The notes under the pieces were generated by a model. The model saw nothing but the letters and a program-made list of their open reading frames with translations, made no database searches and was not told the origin of the DNA. From Escherichia coli (lineage in GTDB: Bacteria > Pseudomonadota > Gammaproteobacteria > Enterobacterales > Enterobacteriaceae): a stretch of DNA of 64,000 nucleotides. The stretch lies in assembly GCF_009931435.1 (NCBI RefSeq), contig NZ_CP043414.1; one strand, given 5' to 3'. Every line of letters starts with the position of its first letter. The stretch's first letter is position 1. This document shows, one piece after another, positions 1 to 46,160 of the stretch. The translations under genes were made by a program, and so were the position numbers.

Positions 1-730
1 GCGCACGCTCTGTTGATGGTGGGTGAGAGTCAAACATGGACTGGGTACGGCCGCCATCCAGGCTGGCCAATTTTTCAAAGCTGCCAACCAGCCCCTGGGT
101 GCTGATGCCACGTTTCTTCAACAGATCAAAGGAGAAATCATCTGCTTCGGACTCTTTATCGCGGGAGTATTTAGCATTGATCGCGCCTTCTGCGATATCA
201 CCTAATTGTGAGCGAGAAAGCTGGGAAGCCACACCGCTGGTAGCGGAAATCGCATCACGTGCGGCAACGATCGCATAAGAAGCTTTCATTTCAGCCAGCG
301 AGTGACCCAACGCGACGTGGCCCAGTTCATGACCCAGAACGCCTTCAATTTCGTTGTCGTTCATCATGTCCATCAGGCCACTGTAGACACGAACACAGCC
401 GTTCGCCATCGCCCATGCGTTGACGTCGCTGGTCATATAAACCTTATAGTTGACCGGCGTGCCATTAATATTGTTACCCAATGCTTTGGCGATTTTTGCC
501 AGACGTTTACCGTACTTGCTGGATTTACTTGCGACTTGATTGCCGCTGTCCATTTCGGCACAGCCCTGATTGGCAATCGCTTTTGCATCAGCATCGCTTA
601 ACGTTGCTGCTTTATAGGCATTTAAACCTGAGCTGATAGCCATATTGGTATCAATACCGTGGGTATTCTGACACCCTGTCAGTAAAGCTGCAGAGGCCGC
701 AATCGCCAGCAGTAATTTAGTATTCTTCAT
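1..730 (-). CDS. ycaL: M48-family Zn metalloprotease lipoprotein YcaL, partial (N-terminal 243 codons; 3' end outside window)
   Basis: Reverse-complement translation from ATG at 728-730 gives MKNTKLLLAIAASAALLTGC... (lipobox LTGC) and an HExxH motif (GHELGH). The frame stays open to the window edge. Position next to aroA matches K-12 synteny. Confidence 0.8.
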   Translation of the reverse strand, partial: MKNTKLLLAIAASAALLTGCQNTHGIDTNMAISSGLNAYKAATLSDADAKAIANQGCAEMDSGNQVASKSSKYGKRLAKIAKALGNNINGTPVNYKVYMTSDVNAWAMANGCVRVYSGLMDMMNDNEIEGVLGHELGHVALGHSLAEMKASYAIVAARDAISATSGVASQLSRSQLGDIAEGAINAKYSRDKESEADDFSFDLLKKRGISTQGLVGSFEKLASLDGGRTQSMFDSHPPSTERA

Positions 731-823
731 GTGAATCATCCGTTGATTAATCATATATAAATATTATGTATCAATAACTTACATCGACAAACGACGCTAC
801 CATTAATCAAAATGACTCACAAG

Positions 824-858
824 GTCCGAAAAAAAACGCCGGCAATGTGCCGACGTTT
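824..858 (-). terminator. Putative intrinsic terminator downstream of aroA
   Basis: Imperfect GC hairpin (gccggca...tgccgac) followed on the minus strand by a U-run (plus-strand ccgaaaaaaaac). Confidence 0.4.
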
Positions 859-898
859 TGATAAAGAAAGATTTGGCTATTTATTGCACGTTGTTCAT

Positions 899-2182
899 TC
901 AGGCTGCCTGGCTAATCCGCGCCAGCTGCTCGAAATAATCCGGAAATGTTTTGGCCGTGCATTTGGGATCAAGAATCGTCACTGGTGTATCTGACAACGC
1001 CACCAGCGAGAAACACATCGCCATCCGGTGATCATTGTATGTTGCGATCTCGGCAAAGTTCAGTTTTTCCGGTGGAGTGATACGAATGTAATCGTGCCCC
1101 TCTTCTACTTCCGCACCAACTTTACGCAGTTCTGTTGCCATCGCAAACAGGCGATCGGTCTCTTTAACACGCCAGTTATAGATATTGCGCAGCGTGGTGG
1201 TGCCTTTTGCAAATAACGCCGACGTGGCAATGGTCATCGCCGCATCAGGAATATGGTTCATATCCATATCAATAGCGTTCAGTTCACCCCGCGTGCAGGA
1301 AATATAATCATCGCCCCAGCAAATGGTCGCGCCCATTTTTTCCAGCACATCAGCAAAGCGAATATCACCCTGCATACTGTTGCGTCCAATGCCGGTCACT
1401 TTTACAGTGCCGCCTTTGATTGCTGCTGCTGCCAGGAAGTAAGAAGCCGAAGATGCATCGCCTTCGACCAAATAAGTACCCGGAGACTGATAAGACTGCC
1501 CGCCTTTTACGACAAATTGTTGATAGTGCTGATTTTCAATTTCAACACCAAACGTCTTCATCAGATTGAGTGTGATGTCAATGTAAGGTTTAGAAACCAG
1601 ATCACCTTTAATACGAATCACCGTATCTTCCGGCGCAAGAGGCGCAGTCATTAACAGTGCGGTGAGAAACTGACTGGAAACGGAGCCATCAACGTCAACG
1701 TTGCCGCCAGTAAAGCCGCCCTGTAAACGCAATGGTGGATAATTTTCTTGTTCCAGGTAAGTGATCTTCGCCCCGCCCAGGCGCAGCGCATCCACCAGAT
1801 GACCAATGGGGCGTTCTTTCATACGCGGTTCACCGGTCAGCACAATATCATTGCTACCCAGACAAAGAGCTGCCGCCAGCGGACGCATTGCCGTTCCGGC
1901 GTTACCGAGGAACAACTCCAGGGCACTTTTTGCGTGTAATGGACCGCCGTTACCGATGATTTCGCAACGCGTACGATCGGCTGAAAGCGTATAGCTTACC
2001 CCTAACGCTGTTAATGCTTTCAGCATATGGCGCACGTCATCGCTATCCAGCAGATTGGTTAATACTGTTTTGCCGTGTGCTAATGCCGCCAGCAATAAAG
2101 CGCGGTTAGAAACGCTCTTGGAACCGGGCAGATTAATGGTGCCATCGACACGAGCGATGGGTTGTAACGTCAGGGATTCCAT
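899..2182 (-). CDS. aroA: 3-phosphoshikimate 1-carboxyvinyltransferase (EPSP synthase)
   Basis: 427-aa [38 protein letters not shown]... recognised as AroA; sits downstream of serC as in the serC-aroA operon. Confidence 0.97.
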
Positions 2183-2203
2183 GAACTCAACTCTCTACAA
2201 CAG

Positions 2204-2233
2204 AAATAAAAACCCCACAGGCTGGCTGTGGGG
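2204..2233 (-). terminator. Hairpin plus U-run in the serC-aroA intergenic region (attenuator or partial terminator)
   Basis: Inverted repeat ccccacaggctggctgtgggg with an adjacent A/T run. A structure between serC and aroA is consistent with known readthrough regulation of this operon. Confidence 0.4.
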
Positions 2234-2252
2234 ATTAAGCAAAATTTCGGCA

Positions 2253-3341
2253 TTAGCCGTGACGGCGTTCGAACTCAATCATGAAGTCTGTCAGCGCTTT
2301 AACGCCTTCCAGAGGCATTGCGTTATAAATTGACGCACGCATACCGCCGACCACACGATGCCCTTTCAGGGCATGCAGCCCCGCAGCAAAAGACTCTTCA
2401 AGGAACAATTTGTCAAGCGCACTGTCCGCCAACTGGAACGGCACGTTCATCCGCGAACGGTTAGCTTTCGCCACGTCATTGCGGTAGAAATCGCTGTTAT
2501 CAATCACCCCATACAGCAGTTCTGCTTTTTGCTGATTGATTTTATCCATTGCAGCTACACCGCCGTTCGCTTTCAGCCATTTAAAGACCAGACCAGACAG
2601 ATACCAGGCAAATGTCGGCGGCGTGTTAAACATTGAGTCGTTATCGTTAAGGATGGAATAATCCAGAATCGACGGACAAGCGATATTCGCTTTACCCAGT
2701 AAGTCTTCACGAACGATGACGATTGTCAGGCCCGCCGGGCCGATATTTTTCTGTGCGCCAGCATAAATCACACCGTAACGACTGACGTCAATTGGACGGG
2801 AAAGAATCGTTGAAGAGAAGTCGGCTGCAACCACCACTTCTTTACCAAAGTCTGGCGTTTCGTCGATGGCGATACCATCGATGGTCTCATTTGGGCAGTA
2901 ATGCATATAAGCGGCATTATCAGAGAGCTGCCATTCACGCATTGGCTTAACCGCACGAAGACCATCAACAGTCACTTTGGCGTCAAAGACATTTGGCTTG
3001 CAGTATTTTTTCGCTTCTTTAATGGCACTTGCCGCCCAGTAACCGGCATCAACATAATCTGCAGTGGTTTTATCACCAAGAATATTCAGCGGAACAGCAG
3101 CAAACTGACCGCGACCACCGCCGTGGCAGAACAATACTTTATAGTTGGAGGGGATATTAAGAAGATCGCGAAAATCCTTCTCGGCTTCCTCTGCAACCTG
3201 AATGAACTCTTTACCACGGTGGCTCACTTCCATCACCGACGTACCAAGACCGTTCCAGTCGCGCAGTTCCTGTTGAGCCTGTTTAAGCACCTCTGCCGGT
3301 AGCATTGCCGGACCAGAACTAAAATTGAAGATTTGAGCCAT
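2253..3341 (-). CDS. serC: Phosphoserine aminotransferase
   Basis: 362-aa [49 protein letters not shown]... recognised as SerC. Confidence 0.97.
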
Positions 3342-3539
3342 TTCCCCTCACCACGTTGCGTTGCCATTAACCCACGGACAATCGATTGCGACCGCGGGTA
3401 ATACATTATTCCTGTGGCTATCGGTTTTATCATTCAGTGGCGCGCATCGCAATGGGTAAAACAGTCGAGGGCAAAAATGCGGCACGCGTCACACAATAGA
3501 ATCTCTCGGATTATTGTCCAAAAACCGATTTTTTTGCTG

Positions 3540-4232
3540 TCAGGTCACCCGTTTAGCCCGACTTGCCTTCGTCCATTCTGGATTTGCACAGCGCGGACAT
3601 AATTGTTTTTCCCCTGCGTTCATATGAATGATCTCACTGCAACGGATGCAAGCATAGTCCGCCGACTCAGGCACCACTTTGTAACGCTGAGTACAGTCAC
3701 TGGGTAAAATAAGTAATCCCGGTTTCACCTTGTCATCTTCAAAGAAATAGACACTGATTTGCCCGTTGGTTTCGAGAATCGCCAGACGTACCTGCCCCAA
3801 CTGCTCCACTCCACGCAGTCGCAGCTCCATAAAGAACTCAAATTCCGTCATGTTGGAGTTATTAAGTTTCGACCAGGCCAGCTCACCATCCTCAATAATG
3901 ACAACCGGCTTGCCTTCCAGAAGATCCTCCAGTTTTTCACTGTGCGCCATCAACCACATTACCAGACGGTATAACAACGCCAGAGTAATAAAGACGATAA
4001 GCACCGGAACCATCGGCACATCATCATAAAACGCCACATCCCCCGCCGCTGACCCCAGCGTCAGAATGATTAACACTTCAAACAGCGACATCTGCCGCAC
4101 ACCGCGTCTGCCGGTCATTTTGAGGAATAAAAAGACCAGTACAAAGGTATAAAGACTACGTAGTGCAACTTCGCCAAGGAAATCAAAAGGCACTTTATCA
4201 AATGCCATACGGTGGAGATCGAATGCCTTCAT
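3540..4232 (-). CDS. ycaP: Inner-membrane protein YcaP (DUF421 family)
   Basis: 230-aa ORF with hydrophobic segments; matches K-12 YcaP length and position upstream of serC. Confidence 0.85.
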   Translation of the reverse strand: MKAFDLHRMAFDKVPFDFLGEVALRSLYTFVLVFLFLKMTGRRGVRQMSLFEVLIILTLGSAAGDVAFYDDVPMVPVLIVFITLALLYRLVMWLMAHSEKLEDLLEGKPVVIIEDGELAWSKLNNSNMTEFEFFMELRLRGVEQLGQVRLAILETNGQISVYFFEDDKVKPGLLILPSDCTQRYKVVPESADYACIRCSEIIHMNAGEKQLCPRCANPEWTKASRAKRVT

Positions 4233-4361
4233 TTTTATGCTCTTATCGTGGTTTATCCGCTAAAAGCATAGTCAACAGTTCATCTGCCTGGCGGCGGTGA
4301 TAGCGCCTTTGAGATAAAACCCGTATTATTGCGCGCTTTCCGTACGACTAAAGTGATTTTC

Positions 4362-6122
4362 ATGACGCAAACATTTATCCCCGGCAAAGATGCCGCTCTG
4401 GAAGATTCCATCGCTCGCTTCCAACAAAAACTTTCAGACCTCGGTTTTCAGATTGAAGAGGCCTCCTGGCTGAATCCCGTGCCTAACGTCTGGTCTGTGC
4501 ATATTCGCGACAAAGAGTGCGCACTGTGTTTTACCAACGGTAAAGGCGCAACCAAAAAAGCGGCGCTGGCTTCTGCACTCGGTGAATATTTCGAGCGTCT
4601 GTCTACCAACTACTTTTTTGCTGACTTCTGGCTGGGCGAAACCATCGCCAACGGTCCATTCGTGCATTATCCCAACGAAAAATGGTTCCCACTGACCGAA
4701 AACGACGATGTACCAGAAGGGCTGCTCGATGACCGTCTGCGCGCATTTTACGATCCGGAGAATGAACTGACCGGCAGCATGCTGATTGACCTACAATCTG
4801 GTAACGAAGATCGTGGTATTTGCGGTCTGCCGTTTACGCGCCAGTCCGACAATCAGATCGTTTATATTCCGATGAATATCATTGGTAACCTGTACGTTTC
4901 TAACGGTATGTCCGCTGGCAATACCCGCAACGAAGCGCGCGTTCAGGGATTATCTGAAGTTTTCGAACGCTACGTGAAAAACCGCATTATTGCTGAAAGC
5001 ATCAGCCTGCCAGAGATCCCGACAGACGTGCTGGCGCGTTATCCAGCGGTGGTTGAAGCGATCGAAACACTGGAAGCGGAAGGTTTCCCGATCTTCGCTT
5101 ATGATGCCTCGCTTGGCGGTCAATATCCGGTGATCTGCGTGGTACTGTTCAATCCAGCTAACGGTACCTGCTTTGCATCCTTCGGTGCACATCCTGATTT
5201 TGGCGTTGCACTGGAACGTACCGTGACCGAGTTGCTGCAAGGCCGCGGTCTGAAAGATTTGGATGTGTTTACTCCGCCAACCTTCGATGATGAAGAAGTC
5301 GCTGAACATACTAACCTCGAAACGCACTTTATCGATTCCAGCGGTTTAATCTCCTGGGACCTATTCAAGCAGGATGCTGATTATCCGTTTGTGGACTGGA
5401 GCTTCTCAGGCACCACGGAAGAAGAGTTTGCTACGCTGATGGCTATCTTCAACAAAGAAGATAAAGAAGTTTATATTGCCGATTACGAGCATCTGGGCGT
5501 TTATGCTTGCCGCATTATCGTGCCTGGCATGTCCGATATTTATCCGGCAGAAGATCTGTGGCTGGCGAATAACAGCATGGGCAGCCATTTACGTGAAACG
5601 ATTCTTTCACTCCCAGGCAGCGAGTGGGAAAAAGAAGATTACCTGAACCTCATCGAGCAACTGGATGAAGAAGGTTTTGATGACTTTACCCGCGTGCGTG
5701 AGCTATTGGGTCTGGCAACCGGGCCGGATAACGGCTGGTACACTCTGCGTATCGGTGAATTAAAGGCTATGTTGGCGCTGGCTGGTGGCGATCTGGAACA
5801 GGCTCTGGTCTGGACTGAATGGACGATGGAATTTAACTCATCAGTGTTCAGTCCGGAACGCGCCAACTATTATCGCTGTCTGCAAACGTTGTTATTACTG
5901 GCACAGGAAGAAGACCGCCAACCACTGCAATATCTGAATGCCTTCGTTCGTATGTATGGCGCAGATGCCGTAGAAGCCGCCAGTGCGGCAATGAGCGGTG
6001 AATCGGCGTTTTATGGCTTGCAACCCGTAGATAGCGATCTGCACGCGTTTGCTGCACATCAGTCGTTGTTGAAGGCCTACGAAAAGCTGCAGCGCGCCAA
6101 AGCAGCATTCTGGGCAAAATAA
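4362..6122 (+). CDS. ycaO: YcaO-domain protein (ribosomal protein S12 methylthiolation accessory factor)
   Basis: ORF track begins at an upstream alternative start (4329). ATG at 4362 (MTQTFIPGKDAALED...) gives the expected 586 aa. Confidence 0.9.
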   Translation: MTQTFIPGKDAALEDSIARFQQKLSDLGFQIEEASWLNPVPNVWSVHIRDKECALCFTNGKGATKKAALASALGEYFERLSTNYFFADFWLGETIANGPFVHYPNEKWFPLTENDDVPEGLLDDRLRAFYDPENELTGSMLIDLQSGNEDRGICGLPFTRQSDNQIVYIPMNIIGNLYVSNGMSAGNTRNEARVQGLSEVFERYVKNRIIAESISLPEIPTDVLARYPAVVEAIETLEAEGFPIFAYDASLGGQYPVICVVLFNPANGTCFASFGAHPDFGVALERTVTELLQGRGLKDLDVFTPPTFDDEEVAEHTNLETHFIDSSGLISWDLFKQDADYPFVDWSFSGTTEEEFATLMAIFNKEDKEVYIADYEHLGVYACRIIVPGMSDIYPAEDLWLANNSMGSHLRETILSLPGSEWEKEDYLNLIEQLDEEGFDDFTRVRELLGLATGPDNGWYTLRIGELKAMLALAGGDLEQALVWTEWTMEFNSSVFSPERANYYRCLQTLLLLAQEEDRQPLQYLNAFVRMYGADAVEAASAAMSGESAFYGLQPVDSDLHAFAAHQSLLKAYEKLQRAKAAFWAK

Positions 6123-6127
6123 AATCA

Positions 6128-6200
6128 AATAGCCTACGCAATGTAGGCTTAATGATTCGTCTGAGTTATATTACGGGGCGTTTTTTTAATGCCCCGCTTT
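6128..6200. other. Two inverted repeats downstream of ycaO (agcctacgcaatgtaggct; cggggcg-T7-aatgccccg); possible terminator or structured element
   Basis: Palindromes read directly from the sequence; no clean downstream U-run, so the terminator call is weak. Confidence 0.3.
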
Positions 6201-6453
6201 ACATATATTTGCATTAATAAAATAATTGTAATTATAAAGTTAAATATCGATAATTTGTATTTAATAAATACGATCGATATTGTTACTTTATTCGCTTGGT
6301 GCTCCCTTTTAATTAACTGTTTTAGCGGAGGATGCGGAAAAAATTCAACTCATTTGTTAATTTTTAAAATTTATTTTTATTTGGATAATCAAATATTTAC
6401 TCCGTATTTGCATAAAAACCATGCGAGTTACGGGCCTATAAGCCAGGCGAGAT

Positions 6454-6467
6454 ATGATCTATATCAA
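6454..6467 (+). promoter_or_regulatory. FNR-like binding site (ATGATctatATCAA) in the focA-pflB anaerobic promoter region
   Basis: 13 of 14 match to TTGAT-N4-ATCAA, about 60-70 bp upstream of the focA GTG start, with -10-like hexamers (tataat 6477-6482; tagtat 6490-6495) downstream. focA-pflB is a known FNR/ArcA-regulated operon. Confidence 0.45.
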
Positions 6468-6527
6468 TTTCTCATCTATAATGCTTTGTTAGTATCTCGT
6501 CGCCGACTTAATAAAGAGAGAGTTAGT

Positions 6528-7385
6528 GTGAAAGCTGACAACCCTTTTGATCTTTTACTTCCTGCAGCAATGGCCAAAGTGGCCGAAGAGGCAGGTGTCT
6601 ATAAAGCAACGAAACATCCGCTTAAGACTTTCTATCTGGCGATTACCGCCGGTGTTTTCATCTCAATCGCATTCGTCTTCTATATCACAGCAACCACTGG
6701 CACAGGAACAATGCCCTTCGGCATGGCAAAACTGGTTGGCGGCATTTGCTTCTCTCTGGGGCTGATTCTTTGTGTTGTCTGCGGAGCCGATCTCTTTACT
6801 TCCACAGTGTTGATTGTTGTTGCTAAGGCGAGTGGGCGCATCACCTGGGGTCAGTTGGCGAAAAACTGGCTAAATGTCTATTTTGGCAACCTGGTCGGCG
6901 CACTGCTGTTTGTACTTTTAATGTGGCTTTCCGGCGAGTATATGACCGCGAATGGTCAATGGGGACTAAACGTCCTACAAACCGCCGACCACAAAGTGCA
7001 CCATACTTTTATTGAGGCCGTCTGCCTTGGTATCCTGGCAAACCTGATGGTATGTCTGGCAGTATGGATGAGTTATTCTGGCCGCAGCCTGATGGATAAA
7101 GCGTTCATTATGGTGCTGCCGGTCGCGATGTTTGTTGCCAGCGGTTTTGAGCACAGTATCGCAAACATGTTTATGATCCCGATGGGTATTGTAATCCGCG
7201 ACTTCGCATCTCCGGAATTCTGGACCGCTGTCGGTTCTGCACCGGAAAATTTTTCTCACCTGACCGTGATGAACTTCATCACTGATAACCTGATTCCGGT
7301 TACGATCGGTAATATTATCGGCGGTGGTTTGTTGGTTGGGTTGACATACTGGGTCATTTACCTGCGTGAAAACGATCACCATTAA
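6528..7385 (+). CDS. focA: Formate channel FocA (formate/nitrite transporter family)
   Basis: GTG start at 6528 (VKADNPFDLLLPAAMAKVAEEAG...) gives 285 aa. The 398-aa ORF in the track is an artefactual upstream extension through AT-rich leader. Confidence 0.93.
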   Translation: MKADNPFDLLLPAAMAKVAEEAGVYKATKHPLKTFYLAITAGVFISIAFVFYITATTGTGTMPFGMAKLVGGICFSLGLILCVVCGADLFTSTVLIVVAKASGRITWGQLAKNWLNVYFGNLVGALLFVLLMWLSGEYMTANGQWGLNVLQTADHKVHHTFIEAVCLGILANLMVCLAVWMSYSGRSLMDKAFIMVLPVAMFVASGFEHSIANMFMIPMGIVIRDFASPEFWTAVGSAPENFSHLTVMNFITDNLIPVTIGNIIGGGLLVGLTYWVIYLRENDHH

Positions 7386-7439
7386 TGGTTGTCGAAGTAC
7401 GCAGTAAATAAAAAATCCACTTAAGAAGGTAGGTGTTAC

Positions 7440-9722
7440 ATGTCCGAGCTTAATGAAAAGTTAGCCACAGCCTGGGAAGGTTTTACCAAAGGTGACTGGC
7501 AGAATGAAGTAAACGTCCGTGACTTCATTCAGAAAAACTACACTCCGTACGAGGGTGACGAGTCCTTCCTGGCTGGCGCTACTGAAGCGACCACCACCCT
7601 GTGGGACAAAGTAATGGAAGGCGTTAAACTGGAAAACCGCACTCACGCGCCAGTTGACTTTGACACCGCTGTTGCTTCCACCATCACCTCTCACGACGCT
7701 GGCTACATCAACAAAGCGTTGGAAAAAGTTGTTGGTCTGCAGACTGAAGCTCCGCTGAAACGTGCTCTTATCCCGTTCGGTGGTATCAAAATGATCGAAG
7801 GTTCCTGCAAAGCGTACAACCGCGAACTGGACCCGATGATCAAAAAAATCTTCACTGAATACCGTAAAACTCACAACCAGGGCGTGTTCGACGTTTACAC
7901 TCCGGACATCCTGCGTTGCCGTAAATCCGGTGTTCTGACCGGTCTGCCAGATGCTTATGGCCGTGGTCGTATCATCGGTGACTACCGTCGCGTTGCGCTG
8001 TACGGTATCGACTACCTGATGAAAGACAAATACGCTCAGTTCACCTCTCTGCAGGCTGATCTGGAAAACGGCGTAAACCTGGAACAGACTATCCGTCTGC
8101 GCGAAGAAATCGCTGAACAGCACCGCGCTCTGGGTCAGATGAAAGAAATGGCTGCGAAATACGGCTACGACATCTCTGGTCCGGCTACCAACGCTCAGGA
8201 AGCTATCCAGTGGACTTACTTCGGCTACCTGGCTGCTGTTAAGTCTCAGAACGGTGCTGCAATGTCCTTCGGTCGTACCTCCACCTTCCTGGATGTGTAC
8301 ATCGAACGTGACCTGAAAGCTGGCAAGATCACCGAACAAGAAGCGCAGGAAATGGTTGACCACCTGGTCATGAAACTGCGTATGGTTCGCTTCCTGCGTA
8401 CTCCGGAATACGATGAACTGTTCTCTGGCGACCCGATCTGGGCAACCGAATCTATCGGTGGTATGGGCCTCGACGGTCGTACCCTGGTTACCAAAAACAG
8501 CTTCCGTTTCCTGAACACCCTGTACACCATGGGTCCGTCTCCGGAACCGAACATGACCATTCTGTGGTCTGAAAAACTGCCGCTGAACTTCAAGAAATTC
8601 GCCGCTAAAGTGTCCATTGACACCTCTTCTCTGCAGTATGAGAACGATGACCTGATGCGTCCGGACTTCAACAACGATGACTACGCTATCGCTTGCTGCG
8701 TAAGCCCGATGATCGTTGGTAAACAAATGCAGTTCTTCGGTGCGCGTGCAAACCTGGCGAAAACCATGCTGTACGCAATCAACGGCGGCGTTGACGAAAA
8801 ACTGAAAATGCAGGTTGGTCCGAAATCTGAACCGATCAAAGGCGACGTCCTGAACTACGATGAAGTGATGGAGCGCATGGATCACTTCATGGACTGGCTG
8901 GCTAAACAGTACATCACCGCACTGAACATCATCCACTACATGCACGACAAGTACAGCTACGAAGCCTCTCTGATGGCGCTGCACGACCGTGACGTTATCC
9001 GCACCATGGCATGTGGTATTGCTGGTCTGTCCGTTGCTGCTGACTCCCTGTCTGCAATCAAATATGCGAAAGTTAAACCGATTCGTGACGAAGACGGTCT
9101 GGCTATCGACTTCGAAATCGAAGGCGAATACCCGCAGTTTGGTAACAACGACCCGCGTGTAGATGACCTGGCGGTTGACCTGGTAGAACGTTTCATGAAG
9201 AAAATTCAGAAACTGCACACCTACCGTGACGCAATCCCGACTCAGTCTGTTCTGACCATCACTTCTAACGTTGTGTATGGTAAGAAAACTGGTAACACCC
9301 CAGACGGTCGTCGTGCTGGCGCGCCGTTCGGACCGGGTGCTAACCCGATGCACGGTCGTGACCAGAAAGGTGCTGTAGCATCTCTGACTTCCGTTGCTAA
9401 ACTGCCGTTTGCTTACGCTAAAGATGGTATCTCCTACACCTTCTCTATCGTTCCGAACGCACTGGGTAAAGACGACGAAGTTCGTAAGACCAACCTGGCT
9501 GGTCTGATGGATGGTTACTTCCACCACGAAGCATCCATCGAAGGTGGTCAGCACCTGAACGTTAACGTGATGAACCGTGAAATGCTGCTCGACGCGATGG
9601 AAAACCCGGAAAAATATCCGCAGCTGACCATCCGTGTATCTGGCTACGCAGTACGTTTCAACTCGCTGACTAAAGAACAGCAGCAGGACGTTATTACTCG
9701 TACCTTCACTCAATCTATGTAA
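7440..9722 (+). CDS. pflB: Pyruvate formate-lyase (formate C-acetyltransferase 1), glycyl-radical enzyme
   Basis: 760-aa [46 protein letters not shown]... with the C-terminal glycyl-radical region (RVSGYAVRF). Confidence 0.98.
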
Positions 9723-9762
9723 TTAGTTTTGACTGAAATCGTACAGTAAAAAGCGTACAATA

Positions 9763-9791
9763 AAGGCTCCACGAAAGTGGGGCCTTTTTTA
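9763..9791 (+). terminator. Intrinsic terminator of pflB
   Basis: Hairpin ggctccac-gaaa-gtggggcc followed by TTTTTT. Confidence 0.6.
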
Positions 9792-9913
9792 GCACGAGAG
9801 CCTTTTTTGTCAGCTATCTATACTTTAAGGTGACTGCCAAAACAGACTCGACGTAGCCTTCGAGCTGCGCACCAACACGGCCTCAGATGGGCCACATCTG
9901 GAGAAACACCGCA

Positions 9914-10654
9914 ATGTCAGTTATTGGTCGCATTCACTCCTTTGAATCCTGTGGAACCGTAGACGGCCCGGGTATTCGCTTTATCACCTTTTTCCAGGGC
10001 TGCCTGATGCGCTGCCTGTATTGTCATAACCGCGACACCTGGGACACGCATGGCGGTAAAGAAGTTACCGTTGAAGATTTGATGAAGGAAGTGGTGACCT
10101 ATCGCCACTTTATGAACGCTTCCGGCGGCGGCGTTACCGCATCCGGCGGTGAAGCAATCCTGCAAGCTGAGTTTGTTCGTGACTGGTTCCGCGCCTGCAA
10201 AAAAGAAGGCATTCATACCTGTCTGGATACCAACGGTTTTGTTCGTCGTTACGATCCGGTGATTGATGAACTGCTGGAAGTAACCGACCTGGTAATGCTC
10301 GATCTCAAACAGATGAACGACGAGATCCACCAAAATCTGGTTGGAGTTTCCAACCACCGCACGCTGGAGTTTGCTAAATATCTGGCGAATAAAAATGTGA
10401 AGGTGTGGATCCGCTACGTTGTTGTCCCAGGCTGGTCTGACGATGACGATTCAGCGCATCGCCTCGGTGAATTTACCCGTGATATGGGCAACGTTGAGAA
10501 AATCGAGCTTCTCCCCTACCACGAGCTGGGCAAACACAAATGGGTGGCGATGGGTGAAGAATACAAACTTGATGGTGTTAAACCACCGAAGAAAGAGACC
10601 ATGGAACGCGTGAAAGGCATTCTTGAGCAGTACGGTCATAAGGTAATGTTCTAA
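9914..10654 (+). CDS. pflA: Pyruvate formate-lyase activating enzyme (radical SAM)
   Basis: ATG at 9914 ([39 protein letters not shown]...) gives 246 aa with the CxxxCxxC radical-SAM motif. Confidence 0.97.
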
Positions 10655-10663
10655 TTTCCCCGT

Positions 10664-10692
10664 AAAGCGGCAACTTTATTGAGTTGCCGCTT
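10664..10692. terminator. Bidirectional hairpin terminator between convergent pflA and ycaK
   Basis: Inverted repeat agcggcaac-tttattg-agttgccgct flanked by T-rich sequence. Confidence 0.5.
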
Positions 10693-10735
10693 TGTTATTC
10701 CGCGCTTCATTCTGCTACAGCGTTTTTAACACATC

Positions 10736-11326
10736 TTATAGTGCATCTACCATATCCCGTACCTGAGATAATAACGACTGATAATAGCTCGCGTGAAGTT
10801 CTTCTCCATCGAATACCACTGTATTACACAAGAAAGTGACATCGGCATCTTCAATACCAAGATAACTGCACATATTTATCAAATAATCGCTTATATTTTT
10901 TTCCCAGCCCATCTGGACAAATGATTCTTTGTCTCCTCCAACCAGCGCCACCCAACGAACTTTATTGAATGGTAATTTGTGCCCATCTCCATAAGCCAGC
11001 CCATTATTCCATACTCTGTCAATATATCCTTTTATCATTGCTGGGAAGTTGTACCACCAGAGAGGAAAAACCACCACTAACGTGTCATGTTCAAGCAGCT
11101 CTGAATAAAGCTGATGAACATCTGGAGAATAACGTTTATCCATATTCTTCCAGTCTGGTTCATCTTCCGGCGTCATCACCGGGTTGAAATTACGCCGATA
11201 TAAATCGAGTTCCGTCACCTGTATTTTCCGCTCCATTGCCCGCTGATGGATCGCATCAGCAATATGTGCGGTCAATGAATCATGACGAGGATGGGCCCAT
11301 ACCAAATAAATACGTTCAGACTGCAT
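10736..11326 (-). CDS. ycaK: Flavodoxin-like-fold NAD(P)H oxidoreductase family protein YcaK
   Basis: 196-aa ORF MQSERIYLVWAHPRHDSLTAHIADAIHQRAMERK...; length and position match K-12 YcaK. Confidence 0.9.
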   Translation of the reverse strand: MQSERIYLVWAHPRHDSLTAHIADAIHQRAMERKIQVTELDLYRRNFNPVMTPEDEPDWKNMDKRYSPDVHQLYSELLEHDTLVVVFPLWWYNFPAMIKGYIDRVWNNGLAYGDGHKLPFNKVRWVALVGGDKESFVQMGWEKNISDYLINMCSYLGIEDADVTFLCNTVVFDGEELHASYYQSLLSQVRDMVDAL

Positions 11327-20036: not shown

Positions 20037-20227
20037 AATGGCTCACTCAAGCTTGCTCACGATTGATTCCAGTAACAAACCGTATTGTGTAATTATTTCT
20101 ATAGCAGTTCGCTATATAGGTTTGTATATATCGAATAATTTGAAAATCAAAGAGATAGGTAGATTTTCACTCGAAAGTAGTATTACGTGTAAGTGAGGAG
20201 TAATTATTGTTCGGTATCAAAGGGAGA

Positions 20228-20258
20228 CAAAAAAAGCGCCCGCAGGCGCTTTTTAGAT
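20228..20258. terminator. Hairpin terminator downstream of serS (shared with the dmsA upstream region)
   Basis: Inverted repeat agcgcc-cgca-ggcgct flanked by T/A runs on both strands. Confidence 0.5.
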
Positions 20259-20274
20259 TCAGAAAAATTGGGTA

Positions 20275-35067: not shown

Positions 35068-35155
35068 GGTGAGGTGTCCGAGTGGCTGAAGGAGCACGCC
35101 TGGAAAGTGTGTATACGGCAACGTATCGGGGGTTCGAATCCCCCCCTCACCGCCA
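35068..35155 (+). tRNA. serW: tRNA-Ser (GGA anticodon; serW/serX type, long variable arm)
   Basis: ggtgaggtgtccgagtggctgaaggagcacgcctGGAaagtgtgtatacggcaacgtatcgggggttcgaatccccccctcaccgcca: class II tRNA with acceptor-stem complementarity, GGA in the anticodon loop, T-loop GGTTCGAATCC and 3' CCA encoded. Confidence 0.95.
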
Positions 35156-35206: not shown

Positions 35207-35286
35207 CTGCCTGTACGGCAGTGAACGGTATAAAAATCGAGTTTTTCTTTCGGTTGGCTTTCTAAGCTGCCTGTACGGCAGTGAAC
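35207..35286. repeat. Two copies of a 20-bp direct repeat (ctgcctgtacggcagtgaac) spaced 60 bp apart, each with an internal palindrome
   Basis: Exact duplicate at 35207-35226 and 35267-35286, read directly from the sequence. Confidence 0.55.
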
Positions 35287-41918: not shown

Positions 41919-42911
41919 ATGGTGAAATCGACGTTATGTACAACCATTGATTTCATGAATATGTCGCAGCTAACTGAACGGACCTTTACGCCATCTGAAT
42001 CTCTCAGCAGCCTGTCACTTTTTCTTAGTCTGGCACGTGGACAGTGTCGGCCGGGTAAATTTTGGCATCGCCGTAGTTTTCGCCAGAAATTTTTGCTGCG
42101 CTCGTTGATTATGCCGCGTTTAAGCGTTGAGTGGATGAACGAACTTTCCCACTGGCCGAATCTCCATGTGTTGTTAACGCGCCAGCCGCGACTGCCTGTG
42201 CGTCTGCATCGCCCTTACCTTGCGGCGAATCTTAGCCGCAAGCAATTGCTGGAGGCGTTACGTTACCATTATGCATTGCTTCGTGCCTGCATGTCGGCAG
42301 AAGAATTCAGCTTATATTTGAATACTCCCGGGCTGCAACTGGCGAAGCTGGAAGGCAAAAACGGCGAGCAGTTCACACTTGAGCTGACCATGATGATCTC
42401 AATGGATAAAGAAGGTGACAGCACAATCCTGTTCCGCAACAGCGAAGGTATTCCTCTGGCAGAGATCACCTTTACTCTGTGTGAATACCAGGGGAAAAGA
42501 ACAATGTTTATTGGCGGGCTGCAAGGTGCGAAATGGGAAATTCCACATCAGGAAATCCAGAATGCGACGAAAGCCTGCCACGGGCTATTTCCCAAACGTC
42601 TCGTGATGGAAGCGGCCTGTCTGTTTGCCCAACGTTTGCAGGTAGAGCAGATCATTGCCGTCAGCAATGAAACACATATTTACCGCAGCCTGCGTTATCG
42701 CGATAAAGAAGGCAAGATCCATGCTGATTACAACGCGTTCTGGGAGTCGGTTGGCGGCGTATGTGATGCTGAACGCCATTACCGCCTTCCGGCACAGATA
42801 GCACGAAAAGAGATTGCCGAAATCGCCAGTAAAAAACGGGCTGAATACCGTCGGCGCTATGAGATGCTCGACGCTATTCAGCCACAAATGGCCACGATGT
42901 TTCGCGGTTAA
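41919..42911 (+). CDS. ybjX: VirK/DUF535-family protein YbjX
   Basis: 330-aa ORF; position and length match K-12 YbjX. Confidence 0.85.
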   Translation: MVKSTLCTTIDFMNMSQLTERTFTPSESLSSLSLFLSLARGQCRPGKFWHRRSFRQKFLLRSLIMPRLSVEWMNELSHWPNLHVLLTRQPRLPVRLHRPYLAANLSRKQLLEALRYHYALLRACMSAEEFSLYLNTPGLQLAKLEGKNGEQFTLELTMMISMDKEGDSTILFRNSEGIPLAEITFTLCEYQGKRTMFIGGLQGAKWEIPHQEIQNATKACHGLFPKRLVMEAACLFAQRLQVEQIIAVSNETHIYRSLRYRDKEGKIHADYNAFWESVGGVCDAERHYRLPAQIARKEIAEIASKKRAEYRRRYEMLDAIQPQMATMFRG

Positions 42912-44566
42912 TCCGCGCGACCGCGCGCCAGCCACAGCACGCGTGAGAACATTTTTTTCAGCAGCGTCGGTACGGAGTCCACACCACGACGGCCGGCCTC
43001 CATTGCCACTTCAATGGCAAGATCGGGTTTGGAAGAGCGATGGATCGCTTTCGAGATAATTTTACGCAGATTCATCGGCACATTTTCCGGGATCTGCGCC
43101 ACGCGGTGGAACACATCGGAAAATCCCTGGCGATACATAAAATGTTCCATATCCAGCGCCGGTAACGCCGTTAAATGTTCTCGTTCGGCTTCCCGATCGT
43201 TATTCAACAGGCTGCGTACCGTAGCGGCATACTTCTTCCCGGCTTCATCGCCATCGACCAGCACATGCCATTCAATCCCCATTCGACGGGCGAATTTAAC
43301 CAGTGGCTTTAGCCCGGACTGGGCAAACTCAATGACCTTGATCCCTTCGGCATCAAAATGATGTCCACACTGACGCGCCAGTTCATTGATAACCCAGGTT
43401 TCCGTTTCGCCTTCCACCAGCAGCCAGCAGCGAGCAAACAGCGATGACGGACGGTTAAAACGAATGTGGAAAGAGATACGTCGGCTATCTTCGGTACTCA
43501 AGCCACTCGGCCCCAGACGCCAGGCGGCAACGCGAGAGGACTCACGTACCAGTCGGCAAACATGCTCTACCGGCGTTAACGAAAGCAGCTCGCCAGAGTT
43601 GGTGGTGGCAATGCGCTGCAATGGCAGAAGATTCAACAGATGCCAGGCAACTGAAAGCATAATGGGGTGTAAACGCGTTTCTGGATCTTCAATCAGCAAT
43701 AATGGACGTGCGTCTTTATCCAGCCGCAATGTGCCTTTTGCCTGCAATAAAGTAGCAAACAGGCCGAGCAAAATAACCCGATACGAGCGCCCTCCAGGCC
43801 GGTCAATCATCCGGTTGATGATATCCAGATAGCGCCAGCTTCGTTGCTCATTACTGGCCCGCCGCCGCATTAAACGATATCGCGCTTGTCCGGCCCCCTG
43901 CTCAGAGAAATAATGCTCAAGCAGCTGCACCATTGCGGAAAGTCCCTGACGAATCTGTCCATCAGAGAGATTTTGCGGATGTGAGGATAATTCACGGGCG
44001 AGGAAATCGAGTTGGCGCGCGGTGACTTCCACATTAGGGACATTTGGCACCGTGCCGTTACGAATACGGCGCATAAAACGGGCATCACGCAAGCGCAGCA
44101 CCGGCATTAAACGCACCAGATGGCGTGCCTGATCGTTAATATCCTCGACATCAATCGGATGTCCGTCTTTATCGAGAAAACTGCGGAGTGTCATCACACT
44201 GCCATCTTCCGCACTCTCCCCTTCCAGGCGATAAAAAATTCGATGATAACCATCGGTGCATGGCGTCCAGCATGCTTCCAACGGTCGATAGCGGCGTACC
44301 CGATGACGGCCTGGCAGCGATTCGCGGAAGGTCAAAATAATATGCAGATGATGTTCCCGCCCGTTGATATCTCCCGGCGGAAACCAGAAATCGTCGCGCT
44401 CAAAATGGTAGAGATCTGATTCTGGCGATAGCAGCAGGGTTAAGGCGTCCAGCAAGCTGGATTTACCCCACGCGTTCTCCCCAATCAGGACGTTGTTTTG
44501 TTCCAGCATCAACGATAAACGGTTGATACCGCGAAAACCCACAATTTCAACGCGCTCAAGAATCAT
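42908..44566 (-). CDS. ybjD: OLD-family ATPase/Toprim nuclease YbjD
   Basis: 552-aa ORF with an N-terminal P-loop (GENAWGKSSLLDAL) and C-terminal Toprim-like region; the 3' end overlaps the ybjX stop by 4 nt (convergent). Confidence 0.9.
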   Translation of the reverse strand: MILERVEIVGFRGINRLSLMLEQNNVLIGENAWGKSSLLDALTLLLSPESDLYHFERDDFWFPPGDINGREHHLHIILTFRESLPGRHRVRRYRPLEACWTPCTDGYHRIFYRLEGESAEDGSVMTLRSFLDKDGHPIDVEDINDQARHLVRLMPVLRLRDARFMRRIRNGTVPNVPNVEVTARQLDFLARELSSHPQNLSDGQIRQGLSAMVQLLEHYFSEQGAGQARYRLMRRRASNEQRSWRYLDIINRMIDRPGGRSYRVILLGLFATLLQAKGTLRLDKDARPLLLIEDPETRLHPIMLSVAWHLLNLLPLQRIATTNSGELLSLTPVEHVCRLVRESSRVAAWRLGPSGLSTEDSRRISFHIRFNRPSSLFARCWLLVEGETETWVINELARQCGHHFDAEGIKVIEFAQSGLKPLVKFARRMGIEWHVLVDGDEAGKKYAATVRSLLNNDREAEREHLTALPALDMEHFMYRQGFSDVFHRVAQIPENVPMNLRKIISKAIHRSSKPDLAIEVAMEAGRRGVDSVPTLLKKMFSRVLWLARGRAD

Positions 44567-44991
44567 ATCCCCTCCAGAAATATGTGACTTATCCTTTACG
44601 CTGGCAGTATAACGGGAAAGGCCGTGCTAATACGTGATGACATCACATTTAAGCATGGCAAATGTCTGAAAAATGAGCGAATAATCGCGTTATACTCCCT
44701 CTTGCTGATAAGTCTGCAAAAACAACAAAATCAAATAATTAGCATGATAAATTATTTTTTATTACGCCTAAAGGATTAAATCTTTTGCTTGCACTACACT
44801 GTCAATCAGACAAATGACTATATGGGGCAACCCGCTGTTGCCCTAAATCAAATTTACTGGATTTATTTATCTGGTGAATGACTCGCCTTCGTTTTTAAAA
44901 TAGCCGCGCATTATTTCCGTCGTCACTTTTTTACGACGACCCTATAAAACGACCATATTTTTCACAGGGTCAATTTTTAATTGAGGTGGAT

Positions 44992-45687: not shown

Positions 45688-45696
45688 TTAACGCAG

Positions 45697-45726
45697 AAGG
45701 CCTGGCGCAATGTCAGGCCTTTTTTA
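45697..45726 (+). terminator. Intrinsic terminator of aqpZ
   Basis: Hairpin aggcctg-gcgcaatgtc-aggcct followed by TTTTTT. Confidence 0.6.
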
Positions 45727-45784
45727 AATATATTGATTCATCTTCCTGTTGCGCTCCTTGATGTGTTAAGCCACATATAGTCAC

Positions 45785-46005
45785 TGGCGCAGGGGGCGGC
45801 CAATCGCCGCCGCCCCCTGCACCCCCGGGCTCTGGCGAACAAAATCGCCGCTGCGCGGTGCCCTCGACTTATCCCTTGCGGCTACCGGGTCGGGCGCGAG
45901 GTAACATCCCGGTAAAACGCGCCCTCAGCCCACATCCATGTGGGCTGCCCCGGCCTTCAGGGAACACCTCGGCGATTTTGACGCCACCAACACCGGTGCG
46001 GTTTG
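45785..46005. repeat. GC-rich intergenic element with two near-perfect palindromes (gcagggggcggc-caatc-gccgccccctgc; gcccacat-cc-atgtgggc); unclassified
   Basis: About 220 bp of GC-rich sequence with no ORF of 60 aa or more in the track, embedded in AT-rich intergenic DNA between aqpZ and ybjE. Confidence 0.4.
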
Positions 46006-46160
46006 TAATTAAAGCGCAAGAATATCTTTAAATGAAAATGAATACCCTACCGATCCTTATGCATAACATTTCCTTTTAATTGCAACTTTACTCGTCCTTC
46101 CGCTTTCAGTAGTGTGTCATCGCGCATTTCGACTTCTTTCTTTGCAAGGACTGGTTTTTC

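Follow-up and report, generated by a model that had tools for sequence, protein, structure and literature searches.

Apart from K-12 YbjD itself, the best fold and defence-HMM matches of YbjD are to GajA of the Gabija system (Bacillus cereus structures 8sm3, 8x5i, 8u7i). GajA and the YbjD model share the same layout of ATPase, Toprim and C-terminal helices, but the two proteins are only 13–15% identical and GajA is encoded by an island gene whereas ybjD is a chromosomal core gene. A second relative is the Class 1 OLD protein from Thermus scotoductus (PDB 6p74), which like ybjD is encoded by a stand-alone gene and shares with YbjD a Toprim domain and an ABC ATPase that carries a helical insertion (PMC7049728). 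Class 2 OLDs possess a C-terminal helical domain, which the Thermus protein does not have; the latter supplies an arginine from a loop (PMC7049728). The two-metal site has been described as E404, T506, E508 and K562 in the Burkholderia protein (Bp OLD, 6nk8) and as D381, S478, E480 and R487 in Thermus OLD (PMC6755086, PMC7049728). P2 Old, which cleaves tRNA, and YbjD belong to the same family, show the same domain order and are both encoded by single genes, but P2 Old is phage-borne and very distant, sitting on a long outgroup branch in a neighbour-joining tree, with similarity detected over residues 252–440 of YbjD (27.8% identity, E 6e-6). YbjD itself seeded the 2019 OLD classification (PMC6755086), and in 2026 the name 'oldB'/OldB was put forward for its gene (PMC13261556). 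Class 1 OLDs are cited as being present in 0.45% of genomes, a figure that evidently omits YbjD.

The copy of ybjD (b0876 in K-12) analyzed here is located at 42908..44566 on the minus strand of the window, meaning the whole stretch of 64,000 nucleotides of E. coli DNA that was studied, and all coordinates given below for ybjD refer to the minus strand. According to the open reading frame list, its translation, the E. coli annotation and Pfam, the coding sequence starts with ATG and comprises 552 amino acids and a TAA stop, and encodes an OLD-family protein. The gene forms a transcription unit of its own. We consider it highly probable (about 0.93) that ybjD is a stand-alone core OLD gene, whose product combines an ABC ATPase with a helical insertion, a Toprim domain and a helical tail and is probably an ATP-gated two-metal nuclease. 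Since the OLD nature of YbjD has been in the literature from the time the family was defined, and since the phage-challenge test proposed in the initial annotation was published in 2026, this assignment is correct but ordinary and matters little as a finding.

Architecture and family membership of YbjD

Using Pfam, residues 1–375 were assigned to DUF2813 (E 2e-160, 534.6 bits) and residues 376–440 to OLD-like_TOPRIM (PF20469; E 3.8e-16, 59.8 bits, cut-off 23.2), accompanied by matches to AAA_15 (45.9 bits, cut-off 32.1) and AAA_21 (38.6 bits, cut-off 27), all of the reported matches exceeding the curated cut-offs. Among the defence models of PADLOC those for GajA matched best (PDLC00094, 7e-80; others 7.9e-41, 7.3e-38 and weaker; Old 2e-24). 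The AF2 model of YbjD (pLDDT 88.5, pTM 0.87) found GajA (3e-19), Thermus OLD 6p74 (8e-17) and the retron Eco8 OLD (2e-14) as top full-length matches in Foldseek, and the DUF2813 profile aligned across the ATPase domain to both 6p74 (4e-21) and GajA (7e-20). YbjD thus shows an ABC/AAA_15 ATPase (GENAWGKS, LLLIEDPE), the Toprim glutamate and DxD motifs and a full-length fold similarity to OLD proteins. The initial annotation had placed it in the OLD family as a protein with ATPase and Toprim regions and had proposed an HMM search (AAA_21/OLD, Toprim) as a check; HMMs, motif conservation and folds all agree with this placement, and neither the ATPase nor the Toprim motifs, whose absence would speak against it, are missing.

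Residue conservation was scored over 56 diverse YbjD homologues with 28–54% identity. The ABC-type ATPase domain (residues 1–375, DUF2813/AAA_15/AAA_21; 43442..44566) is modelled with a pLDDT mostly above 90. Its Walker A motif or P-loop, G29-E-N-A-W-G34-K35-S36 (44459..44482), has invariant G29 and E30, a G34 conserved in 55/56 homologues and a K35 conserved in 50/56, with Arg in five sequences and Ser in one. In the segment from Walker B to the D-loop, L289-L-L-I-E293-D294-P-E296-T-R-L-H300 (43667..43702; conservation and profile alignment), E293 is found in 51, E296 in 52 and H300 in 55 of the 56 sequences. The profile alignment matches K35, E293 and H300 with K34, E276 (Walker B) and H283 (D-loop) of Thermus OLD, and N323 is located at the site where some Class 1 proteins carry Asn in place of the H-loop His. 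AF2 secondary structure shows a four-helix insertion in the ATPase fold (residues 177–277; 43736..44038), within which the loop 223–241 is modelled with low confidence; by its likeness to Thermus OLD (PMC7049728) this insertion is predicted to be the dimerisation domain.

The OLD-type Toprim domain (residues 376–440, PF20469; 43247..43441) carries the glutamate motif E385-G-E387-T-E389 (43400..43414), which is invariant in all 56 homologues and in which E385 and E389 align to E377 and D381 of Thermus OLD, the ligands of metal A and metal B. It also carries the DxD motif D438-G-D440 (43247..43255; D438 in 55/56, D440 in 56/56), aligning to Thermus D431/D433. After the Toprim core follows the acidic pair D472-M-E474 (43145..43153), which is invariant (56/56) and presumably provides second-metal ligands, and the presumed catalytic lysine K513 (43028..43030) is the first residue of one of the C-terminal helices (AF2, 513–527), with K513-P514 likewise invariant (56/56). 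By position, D472/E474 may be the equivalents of T506/E508 in Bp OLD and S478/E480 in Thermus OLD, and K513 that of K562 in Bp OLD; these proposed equivalences follow from spacing and invariance and not from structural superposition. Thus E389, D472, E474 and K513 are all invariant (56/56), and among these E389 is the only one placed by alignment (to Thermus D381). Together with E385, D438 and D440 they would make up a complete candidate set of two-metal nuclease residues. Across the 56 homologues these Toprim metal-site residues are invariant, except for the one sequence differing at D438, whereas the ATPase motifs are substituted in 14/56, including natural K35R/S and Walker-B variants.

The end of the Toprim region and the C-terminal helical domain (residues 441–552; 42911..43246) are modelled with a pLDDT of 96–98 and contain helices at 473–490, 500–510, 513–527 and 534–547. 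This has consequences for the classification. By gene context ybjD is a Class 1 OLD, as no UvrD/PcrA/Rep-like helicase, retron or PARIS-type partner accompanies it, but its AF2 model departs from the structural description of Class 1 based on Thermus OLD, which has no such confident helices after the Toprim core, so that only its gene context makes YbjD a Class 1 protein. Four C-terminal helices with an invariant lysine appear nearer to the Class 2 arrangement, a likeness judged from the predicted helices and not from superposition. By sequence and predicted architecture YbjD belongs to the DUF2813 branch, which is also home to the helicase-coupled, Gabija-type GajA. DUF2813-positive relatives with 31–32% identity to YbjD have an overlapping UvrD-like helicase gene directly 3' (two loci, L015 and L016, each with a DUF2813 OLD followed by an overlapping UvrD-helicase ORF), and the family thus includes genuine helicase-coupled, Gabija-type members. 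As regards Gabija, a GajA-type OLD protein is present in ybjD but an adjacent co-directional GajB is not.

Locus, distribution and selection

A megablast search found ybjD, annotated as 'ATP-dependent endonuclease', at full length in 5424/5426 complete E. coli genomes with 95–99% identity, the nearest complete genome being that of strain RMDEC465 (99.0%). The locus order lysO, ybjD, ybjX-macAB is kept in Salmonella and Yersinia. The description of ybjD as a conserved core gene with no obvious partner, also part of the initial annotation, stands on both counts, and the gene's identification lies well outside what chance would produce. Neither of its neighbours, the divergent aqpZ and the convergent ybjX, is a known OLD partner, and no helicase was found within 8 kb on either side. 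PADLOC detected no defence protein among eight neighbours, only generic ABC matches on MacB, and Rfam found no retron RNA nearby. Also in Escherichia, Salmonella, Yersinia, Vibrio and six other stand-alone contexts no GajB helicase was found beside the gene. Thus ybjD is not located in a defence island, and its neighbours are housekeeping genes.

Protein identity to YbjD falls from 90% in Salmonella and Citrobacter to 86% in Klebsiella, 65% in Yersinia, 56% in Proteus, 45% in Aeromonas and 43% in Vibrio. This drop with phylogenetic distance, together with the synteny and a GC content like that of the neighbouring genes, argues for vertical inheritance. No conserved operon partner of the homologues was found, and as the genes beside them are not the same in Enterobacterales, in Vibrio and in metagenomic contexts, they offer no guilt-by-association lead.

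Phage-borne and plasmid-borne copies were considered and set aside. No full-length YbjD homologue was found by tblastn in the 50,697 phage genomes of INPHARED, where the matches were confined to P2 Old, one record of a fragment and a single weak match (about 26% identity). A scan of IMG/VR brought up two loci, one being flanking host DNA from E. coli in the same gene order as the window and the other a Gabija-type island, and a strong PHROG match (phrog_4747, 2.9e-116) was not traceable to a real phage genome. Most of the 'plasmid' matches are records of 0.5–5 Mb or short fragments with the chromosomal ybjD-ybjX pair; one Serratia conjugative plasmid carries a truncated ybjD copy.

The K-12 ybjD studied in the literature (PMC13261556, PMC6755086) is the same gene, agreeing with the window copy in length, neighbours and a TTAA overlap with ybjX and differing from it by lineage-level synonymous divergence. 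From the 57 nucleotide differences between the two, 56 are synonymous and one is non-synonymous (residue 489, M in K-12 and V in the window). The 3.4% divergence of ybjD compares with 2–7% in flanking genes. Purifying selection on ybjD is very strong: dN/dS is 0.005 against K-12, as low as for the nearby metabolic enzyme Hcp, and 0.04 against Salmonella. Within the protein, constraint is highest in the Toprim segment (dN/dS 0.011 against Salmonella), with 84 of the 85 residues from 376 to 460 identical between both species. Six E. coli records even encode a 100% identical YbjD at 95.7–96.9% DNA identity. A recoded or synthetic genome was ruled out for these records, because their 54–57 differences affect every codon family and consist for the most part of transitions at third positions, so that the divergence is natural under strong constraint.

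Possible roles of YbjD

From the analogy to Thermus OLD, Burkholderia OLD and GajA we propose that YbjD probably oligomerises through the insertion in its ATPase domain, that two-metal catalysis at its Toprim site probably leads to cutting or nicking of nucleic acid, and that the nuclease is probably gated, and not powered, by the nucleotide bound in the ATPase domain. This mechanism is borrowed from the relatives and does not explain the phenotypes described for YbjD, since these need neither the Toprim domain nor K35. In the phage challenge reported in a 2026 micropublication a ybjD deletion strain was as sensitive as its parent across 68 BASEL phages (PMC13261556). Overexpression from a plasmid at a non-toxic inducer level led to fewer plaques of Bas18 and Bas20 and to smaller plaques of Bas64-68, a modest protection that needs the ATPase domain but neither the Toprim domain nor the Walker A lysine (PMC13261556). 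The gene is expressed at native level and non-essential, and the K35A protein is more toxic than the wild type (PMC13261556). P2 Old differs in two respects, as it kills recBC cells, which YbjD, having a RecBC-independent toxicity, does not (PMC13261556), and as it needs ATPase and nuclease in vivo (PMC7049728). The caution expressed in the initial annotation, which had called a defence role speculative, is therefore well justified.

The strong purifying selection, the invariant Toprim site next to substituted ATPase motifs and the existence of helicase-coupled DUF2813 members suggest that the selected native function of YbjD depends on the nuclease and may be something other than defence against phages. 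Such a function might be housekeeping processing of nucleic acids (RNA, or intermediates of repair, replication or recombination) by a domesticated, helicase-less offshoot of a Gabija-type OLD lineage, with the anti-phage effects arising from a toxic ATPase domain; we hold this tentatively, at somewhat under even odds. It would agree with a core, syntenic gene that is vertically inherited across Enterobacterales and beyond, absent from the 50,697 phage genomes searched, not part of a defence island and constrained as strongly as Hcp, in particular in its Toprim part, as well as with a deletion that has no phage phenotype and an overexpression effect that is independent of this part. A cell-cycle function is also reported for an archaeal OLD protein, Cran1, as cited in PMC13261556. 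On the other hand, neither a growth nor a repair nor any other phenotype has been reported for the non-essential gene's deletion (PMC13261556), the gene lacks conserved neighbours whose function would indicate a pathway, and no LexA-box-like site (CTGT-N8-ACAG, at most one mismatch) was found within 2.7 kb of ybjD. Strong constraint would also fit a conserved immune sensor.

A more specific form of this idea, which we regard as conceivable but a little less probable still, is that YbjD-type proteins are a vertically inherited, helicase-less branch of DUF2813 domesticated for a nuclease-dependent cellular job, the anti-phage effects being by-products of overexpression. The Toprim site would then be kept by selection, as it is invariant in all homologues examined and lies in the most constrained segment, and ATP hydrolysis would be repeatedly dispensable, as natural K35R/S and Walker-B variants occur.

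Rather unlikely in our judgement, though not by far, is that YbjD is a true single-gene anti-phage system of the core genome, expressed at a low level, activated by specific phages and acting through toxicity of the ATPase domain or abortive infection. The plaque phenotypes upon overexpression would fit, and the greater toxicity of K35A suggests an activity restrained by ATP, resembling that of GajA (PMC13261556). GajA models are also its closest HMMs, its helicase-coupled relatives occur in a defence-island context, and a defence function is established for other members of Class 1 (P2 Old, Vibrio cholerae OLD). The unchanged phage sensitivity of the deletion strain, however, speaks against it, the usual marks of a defence gene (patchiness, island, mobile-element location, fast evolution) are absent, and it leaves unexplained why a nuclease site that is dispensable for the defence phenotype is strictly invariant. 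That YbjD is a decaying, functionless remnant, a GajA orphaned by loss of its helicase, could be imagined from its stand-alone position next to relatives retaining an overlapping UvrD-like helicase and from the knockout without phenotype (PMC13261556), but this very improbable reading is effectively refuted by the selection signal (56 synonymous against one non-synonymous change, dN/dS 0.005–0.04), the full-length gene in nearly all E. coli genomes, the invariant active-site residues and the native expression (PMC13261556).

YbjD is a rare example of a 'defence-type' protein with the behaviour of a housekeeping one. A nuclease site that is never lost, ATPase motifs that sometimes are and a near absence of amino-acid change within Escherichia make the search for a native function that depends on Toprim a concrete and testable undertaking, and advise caution in counting core OLD genes such as ybjD as immune systems in genome surveys.

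Gene ends and candidate expression signals

Upstream of ybjD the sequence reads a Shine-Dalgarno GGAGGGG (44569..44575), conserved in Salmonella, with its GGAGG 6–7 nt 5' of the start codon. TATACT (44606..44611) may serve as the -10 element, as Escherichia and Salmonella share its surrounding block CCGTTATACTGC without a difference; a convincing -35 hexamer was not found upstream, and a scan of this region for consensus promoters did not call a canonical sigma-70 promoter. Further upstream lies the block CATTTTTCAGACATTTGCC (44657..44675), of which Salmonella shares 18/19 bases with the window, the intergenic region having otherwise diverged. The palindrome GTGATGTCATCAC (44634-44646), showing no conservation in Salmonella, was set aside, and so was an SOS regulation of ybjD, LexA-box-like sites being no more numerous in the window than by chance.

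At the other end ybjD (minus strand) converges with the PhoP-regulated gene ybjX (plus strand), and their stop codons overlap in the sequence TTAA (42908..42911). This 4-bp overlap is also found in K-12 and Salmonella, while in Yersinia both genes are 137 bp apart. An inverted repeat within the 3' end of ybjX (42831..42883) is a candidate intrinsic terminator of ybjD, with 15-nt arms (42869-42883 and 42839-42853) that are 93% complementary, a T-run at 42831-42836 and a predicted RNA fold of -37.2 kcal/mol (z = -2.8). K-12 has exactly the same sequence here and Salmonella retains the T-run, and the ybjD-ybjX pair has been listed as a convergent transcript overlap (PMC12288877).

Locus, inheritance and selection

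The ybjD open reading frame starts with ATG and occupies 42908–44566 on the minus strand (552 codons by ORF list and translation), exactly where the initial annotation had placed and named it, with a GGAGG ribosome-binding site 6–7 nt 5' of the start codon. Of 5426 complete E. coli genomes searched by megablast, 5424 have the gene (95–99% identity), annotated as 'ybjD: ATP-dependent endonuclease', which bears out its description as a conserved core gene. Its gene order is poxB-hcr-hcp-lysO-aqpZ / ybjD / ybjX-macA-macB-cspD-clpS-clpA; the lysO / ybjD / ybjX-macAB locus is kept in Salmonella and Yersinia, and Vibrio has a conserved arrangement of its own (terC-ushA / ybjD-like). The claim that no partner gene is present also held, as neither a helicase nor a reverse transcriptase nor any other defence protein was found within 8 kb of ybjD, and PADLOC on eight neighbours returned nothing beyond a generic ABC similarity in MacB.

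The Shine-Dalgarno sequence is common to Escherichia and Salmonella, as are a TATACT element (44606–44611) and a 19-nt block (44657–44675), in a spacer that has otherwise diverged; a consensus promoter scan 5' of ybjD called none. About 70 bp 5' of the start codon lies a perfect 13-bp palindrome (GTGATG-T-CATCAC; 44634–44646, minus strand), which is whole in E. coli and has only its right half in Salmonella. At the other end ybjD and the convergent ybjX (41919–42911) share the TTAA of their stop codons (42908–42911), a 4-bp overlap also found in Salmonella. The two genes evolve very differently, with 57% protein identity and a dN/dS of 0.14 for ybjX against Salmonella compared to 90% and 0.04 for ybjD, the latter ratio being approximate as dS is saturated. 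The pair has been reported by ExcludonFinder as a convergent transcript overlap (PMC12288877), and a hairpin with a 15-bp stem followed by T6 on the ybjD strand, inside the ybjX 3' end (42831–42883), is from its sequence a plausible candidate both for the ybjD terminator and for the physical basis of this overlap.

Protein identity drops with phylogenetic distance, from about 90% in Salmonella and Citrobacter through Klebsiella (86%), Yersinia (65%), Serratia (64%), Proteus (56%) and Aeromonas (45%) to Vibrio (43%), and named family members reach Tatumella, Motilimonas and the betaproteobacterium Chitinilyticum. GC and GC3 content of ybjD are like those of its neighbours. Compared to K-12 the gene shows 57 nucleotide differences, 56 of them synonymous, giving a dN/dS of 0.005 at a dS of 0.154, which is as low as for the neighbouring metabolic gene hcp (0.003) and below aqpZ, macA, lysO, hcr and ybjX (0.013–0.049). 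In the Toprim segment (residues 376–460) 84 of 85 positions are identical to Salmonella (dN/dS 0.011). A recoded genome, raised by the identical protein at 3–4% DNA divergence, was ruled out by the natural spectrum of changes. At the DNA level ybjD and its flanking genes have diverged by 2–7% from MG1655, showing that the window is not K-12 (identity 92.9% for hcr, 95.2% for hcp and lysO, 96.6% for ybjD), and among the 5424 matching genomes only that of strain RMDEC465 has more than 99% identity in ybjD; both points suggest a divergent Escherichia lineage.

Fold, catalytic residues and class

That YbjD belongs to the OLD family is already known, as it served as the query defining OLD Classes 1 and 2, with E. 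coli in Class 1 (Schiltz et al. 2019, PMC6755086). The HMM search proposed in the initial annotation was run here and recovered both domains, namely DUF2813 (residues 1–375, E = 2e-160) and OLD-like_TOPRIM (376–440, E = 3.8e-16), with AAA_15 and AAA_21 also above their Pfam gathering scores. The similarity detected by NCBIfam was confined to the N-terminal P-loop (RecF, PtuA, the Eco8 effector, MAD3), and the best PADLOC models were those of the Gabija OLD protein GajA (7e-80 and weaker), the 'Old' model reaching 2e-24. From an alignment of 56 diverse homologues AlphaFold2 gave a confident model (pLDDT 88.5, pTM 0.87) with an ABC-ATPase core, a four-helix insertion (177–277), an alpha/beta unit for Toprim and, at the C terminus, four helices. 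Its top Foldseek matches in the PDB are all OLD-family proteins (GajA 3e-19, Thermus scotoductus OLD 8e-17, retron Eco8 OLD 2e-14), followed by PtuA and SMC/Rad50 heads, and the family profile matches the Thermus structure 6p74 at 4e-21 and GajA at 7e-20. The family assignment with ATPase and Toprim parts is thus secure.

For the motif counts, 56 full-length homologues of 28–54% identity were aligned and residues tallied per position. E385, G386, E387, E389, D440, D472, E474 and K513 are invariant and D438 is kept in 55 of 56. In the profile alignment E385/E389/D438/D440 fall on the Thermus OLD metal ligands E377/D381/D431/D433, and K35/E293/H300 on its P-loop Lys, Walker B Glu and D-loop His. 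From spacing and invariance, D472-x-E474 would supply the metal-B ligands still missing and K513 the catalytic Lys/Arg, which would complete the candidate two-metal site. The ATPase motifs are less strict than the Toprim-side residues: in place of K35 five homologues have Arg and one has Ser, four have Gly for E296, and five have Asp, Lys or Ser for E293. Altogether 14 of the 56 deviate somewhere in these motifs, and all 14 keep the full Toprim set.

YbjD is Class 1 by the neighbourhood definition. Yet its predicted architecture ends in a helical domain that carries an invariant lysine; Class 2 proteins have such a domain and the Class 1 Thermus OLD has none. Moreover, its best defence-model matches are to GajA, and some members of its Pfam family are helicase-coupled. 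'Class 1' therefore describes the context of YbjD and not its lineage. The DefenseFinder figure of Class 1 OLDs in 0.45% of genomes cannot include the core enterobacterial ybjD.

Native role of YbjD

By analogy with the Thermus and Burkholderia OLD proteins and GajA, YbjD would oligomerise through its ATPase insertion and perform metal-dependent cleavage at its Toprim site, with nucleotide binding as a regulatory input and not as an energy source. The phage challenge proposed earlier has been published: Atahualpa et al. (2026) reported that ybjD is expressed, that sensitivity of the Keio deletion to 68 BASEL phages is unchanged, and that pBAD expression has modest effects, with fewer Bas18 and Bas20 plaques and smaller Bas64–68 plaques (PMC13261556). 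This phenotype depends on the ATPase domain but not on Toprim or the acidic residues there; the K35A variant retains it with higher toxicity, and recBC(ts) cells are not killed by YbjD, which differs in this from phage P2 Old (PMC13261556). The higher toxicity on loss of ATP binding is consistent with an ATP-restrained activity as in GajA.

YbjD combines single-gene organisation with strong constraint. A nuclease-dependent cellular role is the reading we tentatively favour, at a probability of roughly 40%. A dedicated defence role, for which the overexpression phenotypes speak, appears somewhat less likely, and the data fit a pure defence reading only awkwardly because the region dispensable for the overexpression phenotype is the one that evolution never alters, and because ybjD lacks the population-genetic and genomic hallmarks of defence genes. 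The initial annotation is thus confirmed in its observation and supported in its interpretation, including that of defence as speculative; what is added here is only the selection and conservation argument, which makes the question of native function specific and testable. In minor mentions elsewhere, a cathelicidin-type peptide mildly induces ybjD in UPEC, and in Edwardsiella one of the top EnrR ChIP peaks lies upstream of the homologue.

Mobile elements, relatives and other features of the window

No YbjD-type protein was found in real phage genomes (INPHARED, IMG/VR), and P2 Old shares 27.8% identity over 190 residues. The sole close 'viral' match is an E. coli host flank: positions 1–5000 of IMGVR_UViG_2534681697_000018 are colinear with the window over macA-ybjX-ybjD-aqpZ and diverge past aqpZ (compared with 45690–46160), suggesting that in that strain a prophage or island has inserted between aqpZ and lysO. 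YbjD has a match at 2.9e-116 to phrog_4747, a PHROGs family of unknown function; no such protein was found in INPHARED sequenced phages or genuine IMG/VR phage contigs, and prophage flanks or islands may be the source of the family. Most 'plasmid' matches listed are large records (0.5–5 Mb) or short fragments with the chromosomal ybjD-ybjX pair. The conjugative MOBP/MPF_I plasmid NZ_MT039179.1 of Serratia proteamaculans carries at 4001–7784, adjoining type IVb pilus genes, an unannotated ybjD without its first 51 codons followed by ybjX and macA, apparently a segment captured from a chromosome.

Ten YbjD-type genes across taxa and metagenomes stand alone, and the DUF2813 family is not uniformly so. 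On an IMG/VR contig (L015) a DUF2813-positive OLD gene (31% protein identity to YbjD) is followed with a 4-bp overlap by a UvrD-type helicase (PF00580, 4e-70), and downstream of a second relative (P0264) an overlapping ORF is 65% identical to this helicase. The L015 pair is flanked by a 1120-aa HEPN_Swt1/DUF499 protein and a 1058-aa MmeI/Eco57I-like methyltransferase protein, the compact cluster (135–11066) resembling a defence island. In a neighbour-joining tree, unbootstrapped and given little weight, enterobacterial and Vibrio proteins form one clade with stand-alone contexts throughout the sample, both architectures occur in the other DUF2813 branch, and P2 Old is a very distant outgroup. 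Giant DUF2813/OLD proteins of 1046–1867 aa (P0149, P0162, P0163, P0165, P0170, P0175) carry several-hundred-residue insertions in the ATPase domain, and their long C-terminal tails match no Pfam family.

Elsewhere in the window, a minimal CRISPR-like array (35207–35286) adjoins a tRNA (35068–35152) and has two identical repeat cores at a distance of 60 nt, one of which scores as Rfam CRISPR-DR4 (50.1 bits). In E. coli strains without type I-F cas genes a vestigial array persists between clpA and infA, and the array in the window resembles that remnant. Unrelated to ybjD, the sRNA families STnc130 (20127–20261), naRNA4 (CssrE; 62694–62774) and ES036 (CssrF; 63731–63773) match above their Rfam gathering scores.
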